Of a stretch of 60,791 bases of DNA, positions 24,966-34,657 are shown piece after piece (the first letter of the stretch is position 1; each line of letters starts with the position of its first letter). This DNA comes from a bacterium (lineage in GTDB: Bacteria > Desulfobacterota > S145-22). Made by a program: the position numbers and the translations under genes. The notes under the pieces are model-generated. The model did not search any database and had not been told where the DNA came from. It was given only the letters and a program-made list of their open reading frames with translations. Location of the stretch: assembly GCA_026986155.1 (NCBI GenBank), contig JALSPC010000016.1, positions 1 through 60,791 on the forward strand. The letters run 5' to 3'.

Positions 24966-26756
24966 TCAACGCGCGAAAATCTTTTCCAGCTCCCTTATCG
25001 TGAGAAAATGAACAAAGGGACGGCCGTGGGGACAAGCGAGGGGAATGCCTTCCCGGATAACCTGATCCAACAGACTGTAGGCCTCGGGAACGGAGACTTC
25101 ATCCTGGCCACGGCTGGCGGCGTGGCAGGCAATGGTAGCCAAAAACCCATCCACACGATTGGAAAGCCCTTCCATGGTGGGGGTTTCCGAAAATTCTTGA
25201 AAAAGCTCCCGAACGAGGGATTCCGCTTCCTCTTGGTTCACCCACTCGGGGAGGGACGTGACGCGAAGAGTCCCTTCCCCGAAGGGTTCCAGGACAATTC
25301 CCATCTTCCGGAGAAGGGGATTGGAAAGGCGGTAGATCTCCGCTTCAGCCGCATCGATGGAAACGACCGCGGGCAGAAGGCAGCGCTGGGACGGCACGGA
25401 ATGGCCGTAGTGCCGCTTTAGGCGTTCGAAAATGAGACGTTCGTGGGCGGCGTGCTTGTCGACAATAAAGATTCCCCCGCCATAGGCAGCCACGACGTAG
25501 GTATTGACCACGACGCCCAGGATTCTATAATCCCGCGGGATCCCTTCCGGCTCATGGCCTGCGCGTTTAACTTGAGATGCCCCATCGAGATCCTCGCGGG
25601 TGCCGTAGCTTTCCAAAGGCGCCTCCAACACTTGGGGAACCAAACGATTCAGAAAATCCTCACCTTGTCCCCGTCTGTCTTTTTTGGTCACGTAACGGGC
25701 CGATGAGAACCGGAGACTGGGATTCGGGGGTTGGTATCTTTCCCCTAGAACCTCTTGAACCGGGTTGGGATGGACGGACAGGGCGGAGGCTATGGCCTTT
25801 TGCAGCCATCCCAGTATCTCGTATTCCTGAGTAAGGCGCACTTCGAACTTGGACGGGTGGACGTTTACGTCTACCAGCCCAGGCGGCAGGTCCAGGCACA
25901 GCACCCCGTCCGGGATATATCCCTTCGGCGCCACAGAACGATAGGCGCTCAAAACAGCGCGAAGGATCTTTCTGTCGGTAATCCAGCGCCGATTCAGGGA
26001 AAAGAAGATTCCCCGCCCCCGGTTCCGGACAAACGGGGGAACCGCAATCAACCCCCAAAGCCGCGCGCCGTTGAATTGCCCGTCCACCGGGACCATGGGC
26101 TGGTCCTGGATATCAGGCCAGATCTGCGTCAGTCTGTCTCCAACCTCCTCAACCACGGGAAGCGCCAAGACGCGCTTTCTCTCCTGAATGACCTCCATCT
26201 GAACCGGAAGGTTTACCAGACTCAGCGCATGTAAGACGCGAAACAGGTGAAATCCCTCCGTCCGGTCGGATTTGAGGAAACGTCGGCGCGCCGGGGTATT
26301 GTAAAAAAGGGTCCGGACACTTACGACTGTTCCAGGTGACATGCCGCAATCCCGGACTTGCCGGATCTTTCCTCCCTCAAGGGTGATTTCCGTTCCCGCC
26401 GCATCTTCCGGCCGCCGGGTCCGAATCGTCATGCGGGACACGGCGGCAATGCTAGGCAAGGCCTCACCCCGAAATCCGAGGGTGGAAACCCGGTGAATGT
26501 CCTCCGCTGATAATATTTTACTGGTAGCGTGCCGCTCGATACACAGGAGGGCGTCTGAACGGGACATGCCGCATCCGTCGTCCTCCACCTCGAGAAGGCG
26601 TTTCCCCATCTTTTCCAGGCGCAGGATGATACGGCGCGCTCCCGCGTCCAGAGAGTTCTCCATTAGCTCCTTCAACACCGACGCGGGACGCTGCACCACT
26701 TCACCCGCGGCGATTTTGTGAATGACCGCCTCGTCCAGAAGATGGATGCGTCCCAT
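24966..26756 (-). CDS. mutL: DNA mismatch repair protein MutL
   Basis: 596 aa. GHKL ATPase N-terminus IAAGEVVQRPASVLKELMENSLDAGA. C-terminal ACPHGRP motif. Confidence 0.95.
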   Translation of the reverse strand: MGRIHLLDEAVIHKIAAGEVVQRPASVLKELMENSLDAGARRIILRLEKMGKRLLEVEDDGCGMSRSDALLCIERHATSKILSAEDIHRVSTLGFRGEALPSIAAVSRMTIRTRRPEDAAGTEITLEGGKIRQVRDCGMSPGTVVSVRTLFYNTPARRRFLKSDRTEGFHLFRVLHALSLVNLPVQMEVIQERKRVLALPVVEEVGDRLTQIWPDIQDQPMVPVDGQFNGARLWGLIAVPPFVRNRGRGIFFSLNRRWITDRKILRAVLSAYRSVAPKGYIPDGVLCLDLPPGLVDVNVHPSKFEVRLTQEYEILGWLQKAIASALSVHPNPVQEVLGERYQPPNPSLRFSSARYVTKKDRRGQGEDFLNRLVPQVLEAPLESYGTREDLDGASQVKRAGHEPEGIPRDYRILGVVVNTYVVAAYGGGIFIVDKHAAHERLIFERLKRHYGHSVPSQRCLLPAVVSIDAAEAEIYRLSNPLLRKMGIVLEPFGEGTLRVTSLPEWVNQEEAESLVRELFQEFSETPTMEGLSNRVDGFLATIACHAASRGQDEVSVPEAYSLLDQVIREGIPLACPHGRPFVHFLTIRELEKIFAR

Positions 26757-26832
26757 AGCGTTTTTAAGGTATCACAACCGAGAATTGGACATCAAGGAAA
26801 AAGTCTGGACTCCAGTAATCGTTCCGGCCCAT

Positions 26833-26864
26833 AAAAAAGAGGGACGAATTGTTTTCGTCCCTCT
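26833..26864 (-). terminator. Rho-independent terminator closing the bamBCDEF-like operon
   Basis: Minus-strand stem AGAGGGACGA / TCGTCCCTCT followed by TTTTTT. Confidence 0.65.
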
Positions 26865-26885
26865 CTCCGCGTGCTTTCCTCTCGG

Positions 26886-27719
26886 TTACGATTCCTTCTT
26901 CGCCACAGCGCGCTGGTCGTCGGGCACGGGCGGCGGGACCGGCACACCCCCTTCAAGCTTGGTGACGGCGGAGAATCGCGGCGGGCAGACCTCGAGGCAG
27001 GTGCCGCAACGGATGCATTTCTCCTGGTCGATGATATGGATGACCTTCTTGTCCCCGTCGATGGCGTCCACGGGGCAGTTTCTCCTGCAGGTACCGCAGC
27101 CTTGGCACTTTTCCGGATCGATATAGTAGGAAGGTTTCTCGGTAAAGAGTTTCTCCACCTCCTCGCGCGTGTAGAGGGCGGCATACTCGTCGGTGTTCTC
27201 GAGGTGCTTCAGCAGTTTGTCCCGCTTGGCGATCTTGATGTAAGGGATGTTCTTGATCACGCCCTGAATTCTCGCCTCCAGGTCGTTTTCGCTCAGATCC
27301 TCGCTGGAGCCCAGGGGACCCAGATCCCGAACCGTCTTGGTAAAGGATGTCACTGTATCCGCGAAACGGATGCCCTCGGAGGCGGTAACCCACTGCAATT
27401 TCAGCCTGTCGGGATTTATCCCCGCGTATTCAAGGAGCCTTTTCGCCAGGCTCGCCATGCTGGCCGCGTTGTAGTTGCCCTCCGGAACGTAGTGGCACTC
27501 GCCCGGCCAGCAGCAACAGATGAGAACCCCGTCAGCACCTTTTTCAAAGGCCCGGAACACGAACGACAAGTCAACCCTTCCGCCGCACATGAGGCGGATG
27601 ATCCTAATCTCTGGGGGATACTGTAGCCGGGAAACTCCGGCTATATCGGCAGCGGCGTAGCCTCACCAGTGGCACAAGAAACTAATGATCTTCGGCTTGA
27701 ATCCAAAACCTGCGCTCAT
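26886..27719 (-). CDS. bamF: MvhD-like protein fused to a 2x[4Fe-4S] ferredoxin domain (BamF-like), with in-frame UGA read as selenocysteine
   Basis: The track shows only 26886..27590. The same frame is open up to the ATG at 27719 except for a TGA at 27663..27665. Translation: MSAGFGFKPKIISFLCHW-U-GYAAADIAGVSRLQYPPEIRIIRLMCGGRVD. The TGA sits at the second Cys of the MvhD CxWC motif. The C-terminus carries CQGCGTCRRNCP and CIRCGTCLEVCP. Confidence 0.8.
27617..27647 (-). other. SECIS-like hairpin candidate downstream of the bamF-like UGA
   Basis: The minus-strand RNA GAUAUAGCCGG-AGUUUC-CCGGCUA(CAG)UAUC forms an 11-bp stem with a 3-nt bulge. It starts 15 nt after the UGA. Confidence 0.4.
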
Positions 27720-27750: not shown

Positions 27751-30700
27751 CTACAAAATCTTTGAAACCGCCGCGTCAATCTCACTGATGACCTCTTCGT
27801 TGTTGTAATGCTTCAGGGAAATGGCCGCCGTCGGGCAGACCGCGTTGCATAATCCGCATCCCTTACAGAGGACGGGGTTGACTACCGCCTTTTCCCTTTT
27901 CCGTTTCTCCTCGAGCCGGATGGCCCCGTATGTGCAGGCCTCCGCGCACGCACCGCATCCCATGCACCGCTTCTCGTCCACCGTGCAGACGGCGCCGGAG
28001 ACCGTGACGATGTCGTGGGAGAGGAGAGTCAAGACACGCCCGGCCGCCCCGTAGGCCTGGTTGATCGATTCCTCGATGTGCTTGGGGTAGTGGGCGATGC
28101 CGCAGAGAAAGACGCCGTCCGTGGCGAAATCCACGGGCCGCAACTTGACGTGTGCTTCCTTGAAGAAGCCGTCCGGCCCCAGGGGAACCTTGAAGAGGTT
28201 GGCGATCTTCTGACTTTCCGGGGAGGGCACCACGGCGGCCGCCAGGCCGAGGATGTCGGCGTCGATGGCAATGTCCTTCCCCAGAATGGGATCATAGACG
28301 CCCACCCGCAGAACCTTCCTGCCCCCTTCCTCCACGGGCTGGACAATGGGGGCCTTTTCGGGCTCGTAGCGGATGAACTTGATGTCGTTCTCGGAGGCCT
28401 CGCGGTAGTAGTCCTCCTTGAAGCCGTAGGTTCGCATATCCCTGAAGAGGATGTAGATATCGGCCTGAGGATTGGCTCTTTTCAGGTTCAAGGCGTTCTT
28501 GACCGCGTGGCTGCAACAAACCCGGCTGCAGTAGTTCCTCTCCTCGTTCCGGCAACCCACGCACTGGATCATCACCACGTTTTCGGCGTTCATCACCGCC
28601 TCGTCGCCCTTGGCGATTTTCTCCTCCATCTCCAGGTAGGTGAGCACCTTGTCGTTCTCTCCGTAGAGATACTCGGAGGGGGTATATTCGTCGGCGCCGA
28701 TGGCGATAACCGTGGCCCCGTGTTCGATCTCGCGGGTCCAGCCGCCGGTATCAACGGTGGTTACGAAGTTCCCAATGTAGCCCCTTACTTCCGTGATGGC
28801 CGAGCCGGTCATGACATGAATGAGGGGATGGCTGTAAACCTTCCTGGCCAGGTCCCCGAGGTAGGTCTGAACGTCCATCCCTTCCAGGGTCCGGTAGAGT
28901 TTCCGCGCCATGCCGCCCAGCTCGGATTCCTTTTCAACGAGATAGACGTCATGTCCCTGATTGGCGATGGAAAGAGCGCAGGACATTCCCGCGACGCCCC
29001 CGCCCACCACCAGGGCGTTCTTGTTGACGGGCAGCTCAATCTCCTGGAGAGGCTCCAGGTGCGTGGCCCGGGCCACGGACATCCGGATGATATCCTTCGC
29101 CTTTTCGGTGGCCTCCTCCTTCTCCTTGGAATGGACCCACGAGTTGTGCTCTCGAATGTTGGCCATCTCGAGGAAATACTGGTTGAGGCCCGCCTCCCGG
29201 ACCGTGTCCCGAAAAAGGGGCTCCAGCGTCAGGGGGGAACAGGCCGCGATGACCACGCGATTGAGATTCTTCTCCTTGATGGTATCGGTAATCTCCTGGG
29301 CGGCGTTGGTGGCGCAAGAGAAGAGCTGCTCCATGGAGAAGACCACGTTGGGCAGCGTCCGCGAATACTCGACCACCGAGGGAACATCGACCACGCTGCC
29401 GATATTGGCGCCGCAATGGCAGACGAAGACCCCGATCCGCGGCTCCTCTTCCGCCACGTCACGCTCGACGGGATAAACCTTCTCGACGGTAAGTTTGGAC
29501 CGCCGCTTTTCGAGGAGTTCCCCGGTGAGGGAGCTGGCTCCGCTGGCGGAAAAGACCGACTCGGGAATGTCGATGGGTCCCTGGAAGGCGCCGCTCACGA
29601 AGATTCCGGGACGCGTGGTTTCGATGGGGAGGGCGGGATTGGTTTTGCAAAAGCCATGCTCGTTGAGTTCTATCCCGAACTTTTCGGCCAGTGCGTCCGC
29701 CCGCTTTGGGGGATCCAGGCCCACGGAGAGAACCACCAGGTCGAATTCCTCCTCTTTGACGCCCTCATCAGGCGTGGCGTAGCGGACAGTGACGTTCTTG
29801 GTCTCCGGGTCTTCCCCCCCCACGGAGACGTAGCTGCGGATGAAGCGAACCCCGGGAAGATCCGCCGTTCTCTGGTAATATCGCTCGAAATCCTTCCCAT
29901 AGGATCGGACGTCGTTGTGAAAGATGGTGCACTCGGCCTCTTCGTCATGCACCTTCATGAGGGTGGCCTGCTTCTGGGCGTAGGTGCAGCAGACGGTGGA
30001 GCAGTAGGTATTGCTCCCTTCTTGAACCTTCCGCGACCCCACGCACTGGATCCAGGCAACCTTCTTGGGATGTTTCTGGTCCGAGGGACGCAGGACCTCT
30101 CCCCGGTAAGGCCCCGTGGAGCAGGTGAGGCGCTCGAAGTCGAGGCTGGTCACCACGTTCTCATAGACCCCATAGCCGTAGTCCCTGCTCAGGCTGGGAT
30201 CGAAGGGCTCGAAGCCCGAGGCCAGGACCACCGCCCCCACGTTGACCTCCACCTTCTCCGGGGTCTGACTGAAATCAATGGCCTTGTTCTCACAGACACT
30301 CTGGCAGATGAGGCACTTCTCTTCCGTCAGGTAGATGCAGGCGTCGGGGTCCACGTAGGTGACCAGGGGAACGGCCTGCTCGAAGTAGATGTGGATGGCC
30401 TTGTTGTTGGACAAATCCTGGTTGTAGGGATCAGGGACCTGGATGGGACAATACCTCACGCAGGTGTTACAGCCCGTGCAGATGTCCTCGATGATGTAGC
30501 GGGGTTTCTTGACCAAGGTGACGTTGAAATCCCCCGCTTCCCCGTCAACCTGCTCGATTTCCGTGTAGGTTAAAACCTCGATGTTGGGATGCCGGCCGAC
30601 CTCGACCAGTTTGGGCGCCAGGATTCACGTGGAGCACTCGTTGGTCGGAAAGGTCTTGTCCAGCTGGGCCATGTGGCCGCCGATGGACGGGGCGCTTTCC

Positions 30701-30843
30701 ACCAGGTAAACCTTGAAGCCGGCGGCGGCCAGGTCGAGGGAGGCCTGCACCCCGCTGATTCCCCCGCCCACGACCATGACATCGCCAAAATTTCCCTCCA
30801 TGGGCATCGTCAAAGGCTGTCCTTTATCGAATTCTTTTTCCAT
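27751..30843 (-). CDS. bamE: Large HdrA-like flavo-FeS protein (BamE-like), with in-frame UGA read as selenocysteine
   Basis: Track ORFs 27751..30516 and 30625..30843 are in the same frame, giving 1031 codons in total. They are interrupted only by a TGA at 30625..30627. Context: [34 protein letters not shown], where HdrA normally has ...NDCSMC-ILAPK. Two GxGxxG sites ([32 protein letters not shown]). Four ferredoxin-type CxxCxxCxxxCP motifs. Confidence 0.8.
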
Positions 30844-32039
30844 TACGCGTTGACCTCACCGGTTTCTTCCGTTTCCTTTATCGCCTCCAGGATAACCTCG
30901 GTAATATCCTTGATCTTCAAGACATCATCGTATTCCATGGTGATGCGGCTGTCCTCGAAGTTGGTGATGCAGTAGGGACAGGCCGTCACCAGTTCCTCCG
31001 CCCCGGCATCCACCGCCTGCTTCAGCCGGATGTCTGAGAAACGCTCCCCCTTGGGGACCTCCATCCAGATCCTTCCCGCGCCGCCGCCGCAGCAGAGGGC
31101 GTCCTCGCGGGTTTCAGCCATCTCCACCAGTTCCAGGCCGTCAATCCGCGAGAGCACCTCCCGAGGCTCGTCGTAGATCCCATTGTGGCGGCCCAGGTAA
31201 CAGGGGTCGTGGTAGGTAATCTTCTTCGCGAATTTTCCGTCGATTTTCAGCCTTCCCGCCTCGATGAGCTCAAAGAGGAACTGCGTGATATGCACGATCT
31301 CGAAATGGACCATAAATTCGGGGTATTCATTCTTGAAGGTATGGTAACAATGGGGAGAAGAGACCAGGATACGCTTCACGCCGTGGTCGATGAAGGTCTT
31401 GATATTCGCCTTAGCCAGGGAAATGAACATCTCTTCGTCCCCCGTCTTGCGGATGCTCTCGCCGCAGCAGTTCTCTTCCTTCCCCAGGATGCCGAAGGAG
31501 ACGCCCGCCTTTTTGAGAATCTCCACGGTGGCTCGGGCCACCTTTTTCAGCCTCGGGTCGTAACTGGGATAGCATCCGGGGAAGTAGAGGATCTCCATGT
31601 CCTGCTCAAAGGGCTTTACCCCCAGGCCTTCCGCCCAGGCGGCGCGGTCTTCACGCTTCTCGTTGAGGGGATTGCCCTCTGCCAGGAGACTGGCCCGGAT
31701 CGACCGGATGGGTTGAACGGCCGAGGGGAAGGCCATGTATTCCGTAGCGACCCGCCTCAGCGCGATCACCGAATCAATCTGTCTCACGTCCCTCGGACAC
31801 CGCTGGGGGCACTTCCCGCAACTGGTGCACCGCCAGATATCTTCCGCCTCGATGTCGGTCATCCCGAACGTCGCTTCCCGCACGATCTTGCGCATGCTGA
31901 AGGTAATAACCTTGTTCCACGGGCAAACCGTATCGCACAACCCGCACTGGAAACACCGCTTGAAGGCGTCCCCGCCCTGTTCCTTTATGACCTCAACGAT
32001 TTCCTTGTAATCGGCAATATTCTCCACGGTCTCTACCAA
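30843..32039 (-). CDS. bamD: HdrD-like FeS protein with CCG domains (BamD-like)
   Basis: 398 aa. [13 protein letters not shown] and [16 protein letters not shown] motifs [10 protein letters not shown] and [12 protein letters not shown]. The start is uncertain: TTG at 32039 or GTG at 32027. Confidence 0.8.
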
Positions 32040-32054: not shown

Positions 32055-32624
32055 TTAGACGGCCCCTTCTTCCTTTGCTGCCGCCATCCGGGCCAAGGTT
32101 TTCATCAGCTTATCCATACCATACTTGTCGATGAGCGCCTCGACGCCCAGCTCCAGGTCTTCCACTTTCACCTCTTCTTCCTCTTCCTCGACCTCCACTT
32201 CCACCTCTTCGTAGGTCAGGGCGTCGTCGATGCAGACCTGGACGCACATGGGTTCCTCCAGAGGAGGCTCCGTCTCGCACATGTCGCACTTGAGGGGCAG
32301 ACCGGAATCGGGTTCCTTGAAAAGGTCCCGGGAGGGGCAAGAGGCGCGGCAGAAGGCGCACTCGTCGTATTCCTGGCCGTTTAGGGTGTAGGTGTTGCGT
32401 CCCGCGCACTCGGCCGGGGTGTATTCTCCCGCGTAAACGGGGAGGTAGATGTTCCGGATGGGATCGTGGAACACGTGAATCCTGGCCCGGGCCGGGTTCA
32501 CGCTGCTGTATTTCGGCTCCGCATGGAAGGCGGCACAAATCGCCTCGCAGGCCCGGCAGCCGTTGCACTGATCCGCGTCAATCTTTATCCGCTTGATAAT
32601 CTTCGTTTTTTTCTTCTCCTTCAC
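32055..32624 (-). CDS. bamC: Poly-ferredoxin-like FeS subunit (BamC-like) with an acidic tail
   Basis: 189 aa. CNGCRACEAICAAFH, CAFCRASCPS, CDMCE...CVQVCIDDAL. C-terminal tail EVEVEVEEEEEEVKVEDLE. GTG start with an AGGAG SD. Confidence 0.8.
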   Translation of the reverse strand: MKEKKKTKIIKRIKIDADQCNGCRACEAICAAFHAEPKYSSVNPARARIHVFHDPIRNIYLPVYAGEYTPAECAGRNTYTLNGQEYDECAFCRASCPSRDLFKEPDSGLPLKCDMCETEPPLEEPMCVQVCIDDALTYEEVEVEVEEEEEEVKVEDLELGVEALIDKYGMDKLMKTLARMAAAKEEGAV

Positions 32625-32638
32625 GGCTCACTCCTACG

Positions 32639-34657
32639 CTAATTCTTCTCTTTTTCCCCGGACGCTTCGCTCGAAGAAGTCCCGTTCCCTTTCAGGACAC
32701 CACGTTTGATGAGGTCCTCCGCCACATATCCCAGGCCGAGACCTTCCAGTGTCTCCCTGGTAGGAACCCCATCCGTGTTCCAACCCTTGTACTTGTAATA
32801 TTCATCGAGGAGCTTCGCCTCGTATTCGGGAAACCGCTTCTTCCAGTGATCCTCGGGCGGCTTCTCGTCCGTCTTGCGCAATCCGCGCCGCAGGTTGATG
32901 GCCCGGACCAGGTTTCTTGTCCTTCGGGCTATCGTCCAGAGGCCGTCCTCGTCGATATCAAGTCCCGTGGCGTGGGAAATGATGACCGGCAGGTTATGGA
33001 TGTGGTAGGCGGGTTTCAGGGGAAAGGACGACAGTCCCGCGCAGAGGCCGAGGGTGTCATCGATGTAGTGCATCGTCTCCTGCCACTCCACCAACTCGCA
33101 GATGAGGTCGATGGGCGGCCAGAAGGGGAAGCGTTTTCCCTCCTCGCCCCATTCCATGATGAACTGCTTGAACTTCTCTTCCTTGCCCGTGGGAATCTGA
33201 ACCCAGTCCTTGATAAAATCCTCCTTCAGTTCCTTGGTGGGAAAGGGCGCCTGGGGCATCTGCCCCTCGATCTGGGTAATGTTGATCTTCTCCCCCGTGG
33301 ACCAGAGGATGTAGTAGATGGGGTTGAGCATCCCCAGCTTGATGGGAATCTGCTCGTGCTTCTTGATGGTGTTGTGGTCAAATTTTTCCGCCCCCTTCCC
33401 GATCTTCCGGGCGGCCCAATAGACGCCTTCCGCCAGGACATCGCCGATCCCTTCCCGGTGAACGATCTTGTCCAAGAGGTAGAAAAAGCGGTCCTCGTTC
33501 TTCTCGGGAAATCCCGGCAGGTCTTCATCCGTGAGGATACCGTTCTCGTAGAGCTCCACGGCAAAGGCCATGACCTGGGGCGCCGTGTAGCCGTCCACCC
33601 CGTATTCCTGGGCCAGCCCCGCGATCCGAAAACCGAATTCCAGGTCGTCCGCCATGGCCCCCATGACGTAGGTCAGCTTGGAGTAACACTTCATCATGTA
33701 CCGGTGGGTGGGCAGTTCCGGGTGAGGAACAATGGCCCCGCACCGCATGGGGCAGTTGTAACAACTTATCAGCCGCTCCACCGATCTGGACTGCACCTCA
33801 TGCCACCGTTTCTCCGTCTCCTCGGTCCAGAAATCCTTCCGGCGCACCCGGGCGTTTCCCCATGAGAAGCTGGTGGTGTGCCACTGCTCGTCGTTGATGG
33901 CCATCTCCTGGGGCGACCCGAGACCCGCCAGGATGGGCGGCACGCCCTTGATGGGGTTTTCCCTTCGGAACTCGATGTATTTCAGAATCTTGTCGCACTC
34001 CTCCCAGAACTCCGCTGGGTGGGCGATATTGAGGTCGTTCGTGCCCCTCACGGCGATGGCCTTCAGGCCCTTGCTGCCCATCACGGCGCCGATCCCGCCG
34101 CGGCTTGCGCTGGAGCGCTCGTGCTCGATGGAAGCATAATAGACCTGGTTTTCCCCCGCCAGGCCGATGGCGAGAATCCGGGCCCTCGGCTCCTTCAGTT
34201 CCTCCCGTATCAACTCCGCCGTTTCCAGCGCCCCCTTGCCATGGAGATGGCTGGCGTCGCGAATTTCAACGGTATCGTTGTCTATCCAGAGATAGACCAA
34301 ACCCGAGGCCTTTCCCCTGACGATGACCTTGTCGAAACCGGCGTATTTCAACTCCGGCGCCCAAAACCCGCCCATCATGGAAAAGGCCATCAGCCGGGTC
34401 TGGGGTGACAAGGTCGTCACGATGGTCCGGTTCGCCGAAGGCGCCAGCGTGCCTCCCAGGAGGCCCGAACTGAAGATGATGATGTTCTCCGGCGAAAGGG
34501 GATCCGTCTCCGGAGGAACACGGTCCCATAGGATCTTGGCGTTCGTCCCCAATCCTCCCAGGAAAAGCTCCGTGTCCCTTGGATCCGTCGCGACCTTCTC
34601 GATGTTCCCGTGCGTAAGGTCAACCTCTAAATTGAAACCTGTCTCTGTATACCTCAT
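32639..34657 (-). CDS. bamB: Aldehyde:ferredoxin oxidoreductase-family tungsten/molybdopterin enzyme (BamB-like)
   Basis: 672 aa. AOR N-terminal domain LFLGGLGTNAKILWD...IIIFSSGLLGGTLAPSANR. It is the first gene of a BCDEF-ordered operon. AGGAGG SD. Confidence 0.8.
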   Translation of the reverse strand: MRYTETGFNLEVDLTHGNIEKVATDPRDTELFLGGLGTNAKILWDRVPPETDPLSPENIIIFSSGLLGGTLAPSANRTIVTTLSPQTRLMAFSMMGGFWAPELKYAGFDKVIVRGKASGLVYLWIDNDTVEIRDASHLHGKGALETAELIREELKEPRARILAIGLAGENQVYYASIEHERSSASRGGIGAVMGSKGLKAIAVRGTNDLNIAHPAEFWEECDKILKYIEFRRENPIKGVPPILAGLGSPQEMAINDEQWHTTSFSWGNARVRRKDFWTEETEKRWHEVQSRSVERLISCYNCPMRCGAIVPHPELPTHRYMMKCYSKLTYVMGAMADDLEFGFRIAGLAQEYGVDGYTAPQVMAFAVELYENGILTDEDLPGFPEKNEDRFFYLLDKIVHREGIGDVLAEGVYWAARKIGKGAEKFDHNTIKKHEQIPIKLGMLNPIYYILWSTGEKINITQIEGQMPQAPFPTKELKEDFIKDWVQIPTGKEEKFKQFIMEWGEEGKRFPFWPPIDLICELVEWQETMHYIDDTLGLCAGLSSFPLKPAYHIHNLPVIISHATGLDIDEDGLWTIARRTRNLVRAINLRRGLRKTDEKPPEDHWKKRFPEYEAKLLDEYYKYKGWNTDGVPTRETLEGLGLGYVAEDLIKRGVLKGNGTSSSEASGEKEKN

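Follow-up and report, generated by a model that had tools for sequence, protein, structure and literature searches.

In Geobacter metallireducens, BamE (Gmet_2084) is part of the 1-MDa Bam[(BC)2DEFGHI]2 complex, in which its Cys59-Cys62 pair adjoins cluster E3 and its Lys280 is located at N5 of the bifurcating FAD; the BamF of this organism has Sec19 (bioRxiv 10.64898/2026.04.10.717634). A Sec-containing BamE with a SECIS has been reported for Desulfococcus multivorans (dmul_C24500/10; PMC5109826), and lists of selenoprotein families include HdrA with the motif CxxU (COG1148; PMC9312934, PMC1794560). Methanococcus maripaludis HdrA has Sec at position 197, and this residue is bonded to the adjacent Cys as a selenylsulfide, which is located between the N-terminal cluster and the FAD (PMC13518236). 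Two descriptions of this position have been published: in the crystal structure of HdrA from M. wolfeii, the N-terminal [4Fe-4S] cluster of one HdrA has Cys197 of its partner as a ligand (PMC9012536); in the 2026 cryo-EM structures, residue 197 belongs to a redox-active pair (Cys-Cys or Cys-Sec) that swings beside the N-terminal cluster (PMC13518236; bioRxiv 10.64898/2026.04.10.717634). Sec at the BamE site is already known; the finding that we describe is correct but ordinary, that is, nothing in it is categorically new.

The window (the whole stretch of 60,791 nucleotides that was analysed) contains two minus-strand ORFs, 30625..30843 and 27751..30516, in one common frame. From 30843 to 27751 the sole interruption of this frame is a TGA at residue 73 (30627..30625), and translation through the TGA yields a protein of 1030 aa; the ATG start codon (30843..30841) overlaps the stop codon of bamD as TAATG, and the gene ends with TAG (27753..27751). 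From sequence comparisons, we consider it very probable that the product of this gene is BamE, a fused double HdrA with Sec at the UGA that serves as the electron-bifurcating flavoprotein of a class II benzoyl-CoA reductase (Table 1).

Table 1. Features of the predicted selenoprotein gene and its neighbours (positions in the window).
Feature	Position	Strand	Evidence
bamE, 1030-aa fused double-HdrA flavo-iron-sulfur protein, one predicted Sec (U73)	27751..30843	minus	frame, HdrA matches, orthologues
UGA codon, predicted to be read as selenocysteine, residue 73, second position of C70-S-T-U73	30625..30627	minus	alignment to Cys197 of 5ODC_A; conservation
Cys70 codon (TGC)	30634..30636	minus	corresponds to HdrA Cys194 and Geobacter BamE Cys59
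SECIS hairpin CUGGUCG-AGGU-CGGCCGG, 7 bp with 4-nt GGU-containing loop	30592..30609	minus	folding, synonymous constraint, covariation
Lys291 codon	29971..29973	minus	offset of 11 to Geobacter BamE Lys280; alignment
bamF, MvhD-like fused to 2x[4Fe-4S] ferredoxin domain	26886..27719	minus	second in-frame UGA (U19) with hairpin downstream; Geobacter BamF has Sec19
bamD, HdrD/TfrB-like, 2x[4Fe-4S] and CCG domains	30843..32039	minus	TfrB 176 bits; HdrC, HdrB partial
bamC, iron-sulfur electron-transfer subunit	32055..32624	minus	239.5 bits to 4Z3W_E
bamB, tungsten-pterin catalytic subunit of class II benzoyl-CoA reductase	32639..34657	minus	1032.7 bits, full length, 4Z3W_A

In a profile match, residues 23-391 of BamE correspond to chain residues 147-510 of HdrA (5ODC_A), with residues 466-630 and 886-1023 corresponding to HdrA residues 2-166 and 510-647, respectively; because BamE matches HdrA in three stretches, we assign it as a fused double HdrA. 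The fusion is approximately 1000 aa long and has four ferredoxin-type Cys motifs; only its first thioredoxin reductase (TrxR)-like unit keeps the Cys pair (here CxxU), and the second has no Cys at the pair site. The original prediction had proposed that one protein spans the UGA and that it has the double-HdrA architecture of BamE. The single frame, the HdrA matches on both sides of the UGA and the conservation of the TGA agree with the first proposal, and the three HdrA stretches and the bamB-C-D-E-F operon in which the gene is found agree with the second. The NCBIfam scores are below the thresholds of the models, both for HdrA2 (965 bits; model cut-off 1100) and for HdrA (768 bits; equivalog cut-off 1400); judged by its sequence, the protein is HdrA-like, not a methanogen-type HdrA (i.e., a subunit of CoB-CoM heterodisulfide reductase). 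Archaeal HdrA consists of one unit (about 650 aa), forms dimers and has its SECIS in the 3' UTR, whereas the present BamE has two units that are fused and permuted, a bacterial in-frame SECIS, and a ring reductase as its partner rather than HdrBC with heterodisulfide.

The locus shares with that of Geobacter the fused double HdrA, the Lys of the bifurcating FAD in the first TrxR-like domain, the BamB, BamC, BamD and BamF neighbours, and Sec19 in BamF; the gene for the last has a second in-frame UGA (U19, 27665..27663) with a hairpin downstream (at about 27643..27624). However, bamGHI (the NuoEFG/HydABC-like module) is absent from the locus, where mutL follows bamF, and the NuoF-like genes are all located elsewhere, on contigs C77, C141 and C47; thus, the complex differs from that of Geobacter. 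The BamF proteins also differ: that of Geobacter has Rossmann and wHTH domains, whereas the one encoded here ends in a 2x[4Fe-4S] ferredoxin domain. From its gene content, the operon would encode a tungsten-dependent, ATP-independent class II benzoyl-CoA reductase; the predicted function is bifurcating reduction of benzoyl-CoA, in which both the substrate and the electron donor are putative.

The UGA falls on the second Cys of the conserved CxxC motif of HdrA, which belongs to the TrxR-like FAD domain: HdrA positions 194 and 197 (5ODC_A) are the aligned counterparts of C70 and U73, and the alignment of U73 with residue 197 is exact within the motif FPTxDCSxC/U-ILAPK (Sec in M. maripaludis; Cys in M. 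thermolithotrophicus and M. wolfeii, PDB 5ODC). The original prediction placed the stop on a Cys that is a cluster ligand; the position is indeed that of Cys197, a ligand in the M. wolfeii crystal (PMC9012536), but the role as ligand is only one of the two published descriptions. The present Sec73 corresponds to Cys62 in the Geobacter BamE, an equivalence that is based on a constant offset of 11 residues, seen also for K291 and Lys280; by this analogy, K291 would be located beside N5 of the bifurcating FAD. The locus resembles bamE of D. multivorans in that two annotated ORFs surround an in-frame UGA with a SECIS after it and the genome, from a sulfate reducer of the Desulfobacterota, has selA, selB and selD. 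The position of Sec is probably also the same, as judged from the TGA in nearly all close orthologues, including those in Desulfobacteraceae MAGs.

The original prediction had reported that no convincing SECIS could be seen by eye and had left this point open; synonymous constraint and covariation identify a hairpin (30609..30592) directly 3' of the UGA that is conserved beyond the needs of the protein. The distance downstream from the UGA is 15 nt to its base and 22 nt to its loop, and the minimal hairpin has a folding energy of -10.2 kcal/mol (z = -2.7). Nothing else stands out from folding downstream of the UGA: when the whole 48-71 nt after the UGA are folded as a unit, the result is no better than shuffled sequences (z = +0.55 to +0.82). 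Codons 79-85, which encode the hairpin, are under the strongest synonymous-site constraint in the gene (entropy 0.149, rank 1 of 581 windows). In the orthologue alignment, 99.3% of the cells of the hairpin are paired, with compensatory changes at two pairs (19/36, C-G to A-U; 25/30, G-C to C-G and A-U) and a U.G pair (23/32) that changes to U-A or C-G; most Sec sequences have the identical hairpin, and the covariation comes from few lineages. The observed covariation score was reached by none of 500 shuffles, and slid registers collapse; at the same site the Sec forms fold with -10.8 ± 1.3 kcal/mol and the Cys forms with -5.2 ± 3.1 kcal/mol and no common hairpin, both the shuffle test and this comparison being made irrespective of phylogenetic relatedness. 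We rejected an extended alternative from the minimum free energy fold of the 48-mer (GCC 12-14 with GGC 35-37) because column 12 varies freely; the change from C19-G36 to A19-U36 also fits the simple 7-bp hairpin better. Rfam gave no match to a SECIS family in the whole window at the gathering threshold, and at a permissive E-value for 30540-30660 the only match was a chance one to a miRNA (E = 3).

A GGU-containing apical loop and the spacing of the hairpin are typical of SECIS elements that bind SelB (e.g., the fdhF element of E. coli and the model used by bSECISearch). The fdhF SECIS is a short GC-rich hairpin in the coding sequence, just 3' of the UGA, with GGU in its apical loop; the present hairpin is likewise GC-rich, in frame and has GGU in its apical loop, but it differs in its 7-bp stem, 4-nt loop, 15-nt spacer and lack of a bulged U.

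The Sec machinery, whose absence would have spoken against Sec according to the original prediction, is complete: the genome contains selA (615 bits), selB (357 bits) and selD (376 bits, itself with one TGA), and the tRNA-Sec gene (selC) is located on contig C58. The inserted residue is not distinguished by sequence analysis alone; we considered whether a near-cognate or suppressor tRNA inserts Cys or Trp at the UGA, constitutively or under selenium limitation, with the hairpin as a mere stimulator of read-through. The presence of the entire selA/selB/selC/selD set and the SelB-type loop and spacing make this very unlikely. In addition, the site is the known position of Sec in HdrA (PMC13518236, PMC9312934).

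About 77 of the 80 closest GTDB orthologues have TGA at this codon, as do all relatives from the same genus and the same family; the orthologues with TGA are from Thermodesulfobacteriota, Syntrophus, Syntrophorhabdus, Bacillota and Chloroflexota, and BamE orthologues with 66-89% identity have one TGA each. In total, 83 distinct orthologous sequences keep the TGA; 12 homologues with TGC or TGT have Cys at the aligned position, as do solved HdrA structures, and the Cys-codon homologues are continuous through the site. On both sides of the TGA the codons evolve as coding sequence: codons 74-78 and 86-109 are conserved at the protein level while their synonymous sites vary freely (normalised codon entropy 0.72-0.83, as elsewhere in the gene), and apart from the TGA the gene is intact and evolves under purifying selection.

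These observations bear on an ordinary reading of the UGA as a stop, in which a 72-aa N-terminal peptide is followed by a separate 921-aa protein that restarts at the TTG at 30516 (MVKKPRY). Translation with Table 11 yields exactly these two ORFs, and TGA is the commonest ordinary stop codon of the organism (678 of 1532 long ORFs), which also implies that the genetic code is not reassigned. However, a stop would sever the FAD-binding Rossmann fold (GGGISG...CxxU) from the rest of its domain and would leave codons 74-109 untranslated despite their conservation as protein; the hairpin with its compensatory changes and the continuity of the Cys-codon homologues also argue against it, and we give it even less credence than insertion of Cys or Trp. 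That the TGA results from faulty sequencing or assembly, or that a mutation has recently inactivated the gene, is conceivable in a fragmented MAG of 197 contigs but is effectively refuted by the many genomes that share the TGA, by the intact remainder of the gene and by contigs of two sequencing runs from different studies that are identical across the TGA, although one of these runs may be the sample behind the assembly of the window, so their support is not fully independent. We are therefore highly confident, from sequence and comparative evidence, that the apparent stop inside bamE truly encodes selenocysteine and is served by a conserved RNA hairpin of its own; for this organism, represented by an uncultured MAG, the incorporation of selenium is a prediction.

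By the standard bacterial mechanism, SelB with Sec-tRNA(Sec) would decode the UGA as selenocysteine after recruitment by the mRNA hairpin within the coding sequence, 15 nt downstream. Sec73, with Cys70 as its presumed selenenylsulfide partner, would form the redox-active pair of the first TrxR-like domain in its CxxU version; by homology to HdrA and Geobacter BamE, the pair would be placed where low-potential electrons leave the bifurcating FAD. The pair may cycle between selenol/thiol and selenenylsulfide, a chemistry assigned by analogy, or may transiently ligate a [4Fe-4S] cluster, the one in the internal N-terminal-like domain (approximately residues 466-600); in both cases, electrons would pass from the pair towards BamC and BamB. 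A bolder proposal, which we regard as unlikely, is that in BamE of the Sec type, the majority form, the Sec73 selenolate does more than stand in for Cys and directly ligates this cluster in one conformational state, like Cys197 in the HdrA crystal structure, and that the SECIS and the bam cassette have spread horizontally across at least four phyla; if true, an iron-sulfur cluster with a selenium ligand would be part of the electron path with the lowest potential known in biology.

Annotations should treat bamE, both here and in most orthologues, as a gene for one selenoprotein (here of 1030 aa); with the split call (a 72-aa fragment and a truncated 921-aa gene), metagenome surveys of the anaerobic degradation of aromatics miss a complete operon for a class II benzoyl-CoA reductase. 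Two results go beyond the literature that we found: the closest BamE orthologues, in the proportion given above, apparently use Sec and not Cys, unlike the Geobacter model enzyme, and the putative SECIS of bamE is defined with comparative support. Both bear on the part played by the Cys/Sec pair beside the bifurcating flavin, a question raised by the 2026 structures. As a separate observation, the near-invariant hairpin also fixes the peptide LVEVGRH.

The bamE reading frame is interrupted only by the TGA at residue 73 (U73), and the two table-11 ORFs in which the original prediction saw a single protein (30625..30843 and 27751..30516) correspond exactly to its two parts; we confirm that observation, and the evidence that follows supports its interpretation as selenocysteine (Sec). 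The bamE ATG overlaps the stop codon of the upstream bamD (TAATG at 30841-30845), which suggests translational coupling; the alignment with more distant orthologues begins only at residue 16-18, and in these lineages translation may start at Met13 or Met15.

Features of the bamE locus and segments of BamE matched to M. thermolithotrophicus HdrA (5ODC_A)
Feature	Position	Strand	Description
bamE	30843 (ATG) to 27753..27751 (TAG)	-	1030 residues when TGA is read through
In-frame TGA of bamE	30627..30625	-	residue 73
Predicted SECIS hairpin	30609..30592	-	CUGGUCG-AGGU-CGGCCGG; 7 bp, tetraloop containing GGU; codons 79-85 (LVEVGRH)
bamB		same as bamE	1032.7 bits, full length, to G. metallireducens benzoyl-CoA reductase 4Z3W_A
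bamC		same as bamE	239.5 bits to 4Z3W_E
bamD		same as bamE	HdrD/TfrB-like
bamF	26886-27719	-	MvhD-ferredoxin fusion downstream of bamE; UGA at 27663-27665 (residue 19)
BamE segment	residues 23-391		5ODC_A chain 147-510
BamE segment	residues 466-630		5ODC_A chain 2-166
BamE segment	residues 886-1023		5ODC_A chain 510-647

The genome contains the complete Sec machinery, that is, selA (615 bits), selB (357 bits), selD (376 bits; locus L010, contig C17, 1590-2513, minus strand), and tRNA-Sec(UCA) (contig C58). Because selD carries one in-frame TGA of its own, its product is predicted to be a Sec-containing selenophosphate synthetase. TGA is not reassigned in this genome, as it is the commonest stop codon (ending 678 of 1532 long ORFs). 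Nor is the TGA a sequencing or assembly error; contigs from runs belonging to two separate studies have the same sequence across the UGA, one of these runs possibly being the source sample of the window itself.

Among 40 relatives examined, bamE has exactly one TGA in every genome of the same genus and family and in most orthologues with at least 66% identity. The best 80 loci in GTDB species genomes come, among others, from Syntrophus buswellii, Syntrophorhabdus, Desulfomonile, and Desulfatirhabdium as well as Thermincola, Desulfotomaculum, Dehalococcoidia, and Anaerolineae; TGA is found at the U73 codon in all 61 loci identified by a first motif search and in 18 of the remaining 19, the last having Cys. 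Three Cys forms are known in the BamE clade (L026, L027, and L057), reading CSMC-IESPKFIEC where the Sec forms have a CS(T/M)-type motif. If the gene were instead expressed as two polypeptides, the second restarting at the TTG at 30516 (MVKKPRY), codons 74-109 would be untranslated; however, codons 74-78 and 86-109 evolve as coding sequence, with amino-acid conservation of 0.94 and 0.83 and synonymous sites that vary freely (normalised codon entropy of 0.72 and 0.83, respectively, vs 0.82 for the rest of the gene), so translation runs past the UGA.

The original prediction had found no convincing SECIS by eye and proposed computational folding. Folds of 48-71 nt blocks after the UGA are indeed unremarkable (z = +0.55 to +0.82), but comparative data locate a hairpin with its base 15 nt and its loop 22 nt downstream of the UGA; this minimal hairpin folds with −10.2 kcal/mol (z = −2.7, 95% of the ensemble). 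Its codons have a normalised synonymous entropy of 0.149 (median 0.82), rank 1 of the 581 seven-codon windows in bamE, and the nine next-lowest windows all overlap or adjoin it. In a covariation test with 63 distinct orthologous sequences and 500 shuffles, 99.3% of cells are paired, falling to 1-58% once the register is slid. Pair 19/36 changes from C-G to A-U in five sequences, pair 25/30 from G-C to C-G in three and to A-U in two, and pair 23/32 from U.G to U-A or C-G in 12. The observed score was reached by 0 of the 500 shuffles, a control that ignores phylogeny, and only a few lineages contribute to the covariation because the hairpin is identical in most Sec sequences. The G-to-C flip in pair 25/30 replaces E by Q, and a synonymous change from GUC to GUG compensates for it, so the constrained object is the RNA, not the peptide. 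At the same site, Sec forms fold with −10.8 ± 1.3 kcal/mol (83 distinct sequences) vs −5.2 ± 3.1 kcal/mol for 12 Cys homologues, which have no common hairpin (Mann-Whitney p = 5e-9, uncorrected for relatedness). No Rfam model matches the bamE hairpin. As judged from the synonymous constraint and covariation, the SECIS point is resolved in favor of Sec.

Two double HdrA paralogues have related features. The Cys-type L038 (47% identity) still has AAACUGGUCGAGGCCGGCCGUCAC after its TGC codon, close to the Sec-type hairpin; this may be a remnant SECIS left by Sec-to-Cys conversion. In the more distant Sec-type L036 (50% identity), the hairpin has another sequence (GAGGCC-GGUC-GGUCUC, −8.5 kcal/mol) and lies 6 nt further downstream; its position relative to the UGA is thus roughly retained, its sequence not.

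The two flavin modules originally proposed were recovered by Pfam as FAD/NAD Rossmann modules (residues about 20-450 and 605-885), with 4Fe-4S dicluster domains at the C-terminus. The top NCBIfam models, HdrA2 (965 bits) and HdrA (768 bits), each match in three stretches, both below the equivalog cut-off. With its three-piece match to 5ODC_A, BamE is a permuted, fused double HdrA. The neighboring genes match BamB, BamC, BamD, and BamF, and we therefore assign the gene, by homology, as bamE in an operon (bamBCDEF) for a tungsten-dependent benzoyl-CoA reductase of class II.

In a gap-free alignment with 5ODC HdrA, U73 corresponds to Cys197 and C70 to Cys194. The original placement of the UGA on a cluster-ligand Cys agrees with the M. 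wolfeii crystal structure, in which Cys197 of one HdrA protomer ligates the N-terminal [4Fe-4S] cluster of its partner protomer (PMC9012536), but cryo-EM makes this residue half of a redox pair: in M. maripaludis HdrA it is Sec197, with density for a Se-S bridge to the adjacent Cys, located between FAD and cluster A3 (PMC13518236). Fused and tandem HdrAs retain Cys197 in one unit only (PMC9012536); likewise, the second HdrA unit of BamE has no Cys at the positions matching C70/U73. The relay proposed for the low-potential electron in Geobacter BamE is a disulfide between Cys59 and Cys62 that forms in 'state 2', at a distance of 3.4 Å to cluster E3 and 13.3 Å to the bifurcating FAD; Lys280 is located at FAD N5 (bioRxiv 10.64898/2026.04.10.717634). 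An offset of 11 residues relates C59/C62 to C70/U73 and Lys280 to K291. By homology, Sec73/Cys70 would be a CxxU version of this relay.

HdrA has long been listed as a selenoprotein family in bacteria and archaea, with the motif CxxU (PMC1794560, PMC9312934), and a Sec-encoding bamE with a SECIS was already reported in Desulfococcus multivorans (PMC5109826); thus, the present bamE is a further member of a described kind. The increment is twofold: among the closest BamE orthologues, Sec predominates rather than being the exception, whereas the Geobacter model BamE has Cys at this site; and the BamE SECIS is explicitly defined with comparative support.

The operon ends at bamF; bamGHI are absent at the locus (24966-27590), as mutL comes right after bamF. 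Three NuoF/HydB-like (PF01512) genes are located elsewhere in the genome (contigs C77, C141, and C47). The bamF UGA (FLCHW-U-GYAAAD) coincides in position with Sec19 of Geobacter BamF (bioRxiv 10.64898/2026.04.10.717634), and the hairpin (A/U)AGCCGG-AGUUUC-CCGGCU(A) lies downstream of it at about 27624-27643 (minus strand; 51-nt fold, −17.5 kcal/mol, z = −1.9); unlike Geobacter BamF, the protein has a 2x[4Fe-4S] ferredoxin domain at its C-terminus.

The nearest public relatives (86-87% identity) are uncultured Thermodesulfobacteriota MAGs, and the sequence is found in runs from hydrothermal-vent metagenomes. In one of these (X3), the FPTN-CS-U-SECIS stretch (30581-30680) shows an increase in contig word-depth from about 30 to about 670, and in many wetland and sediment runs (X7-X20) no more than about 7% of the sampled words are present; both probably reflect near-invariant SECIS and motif words common to many organisms.
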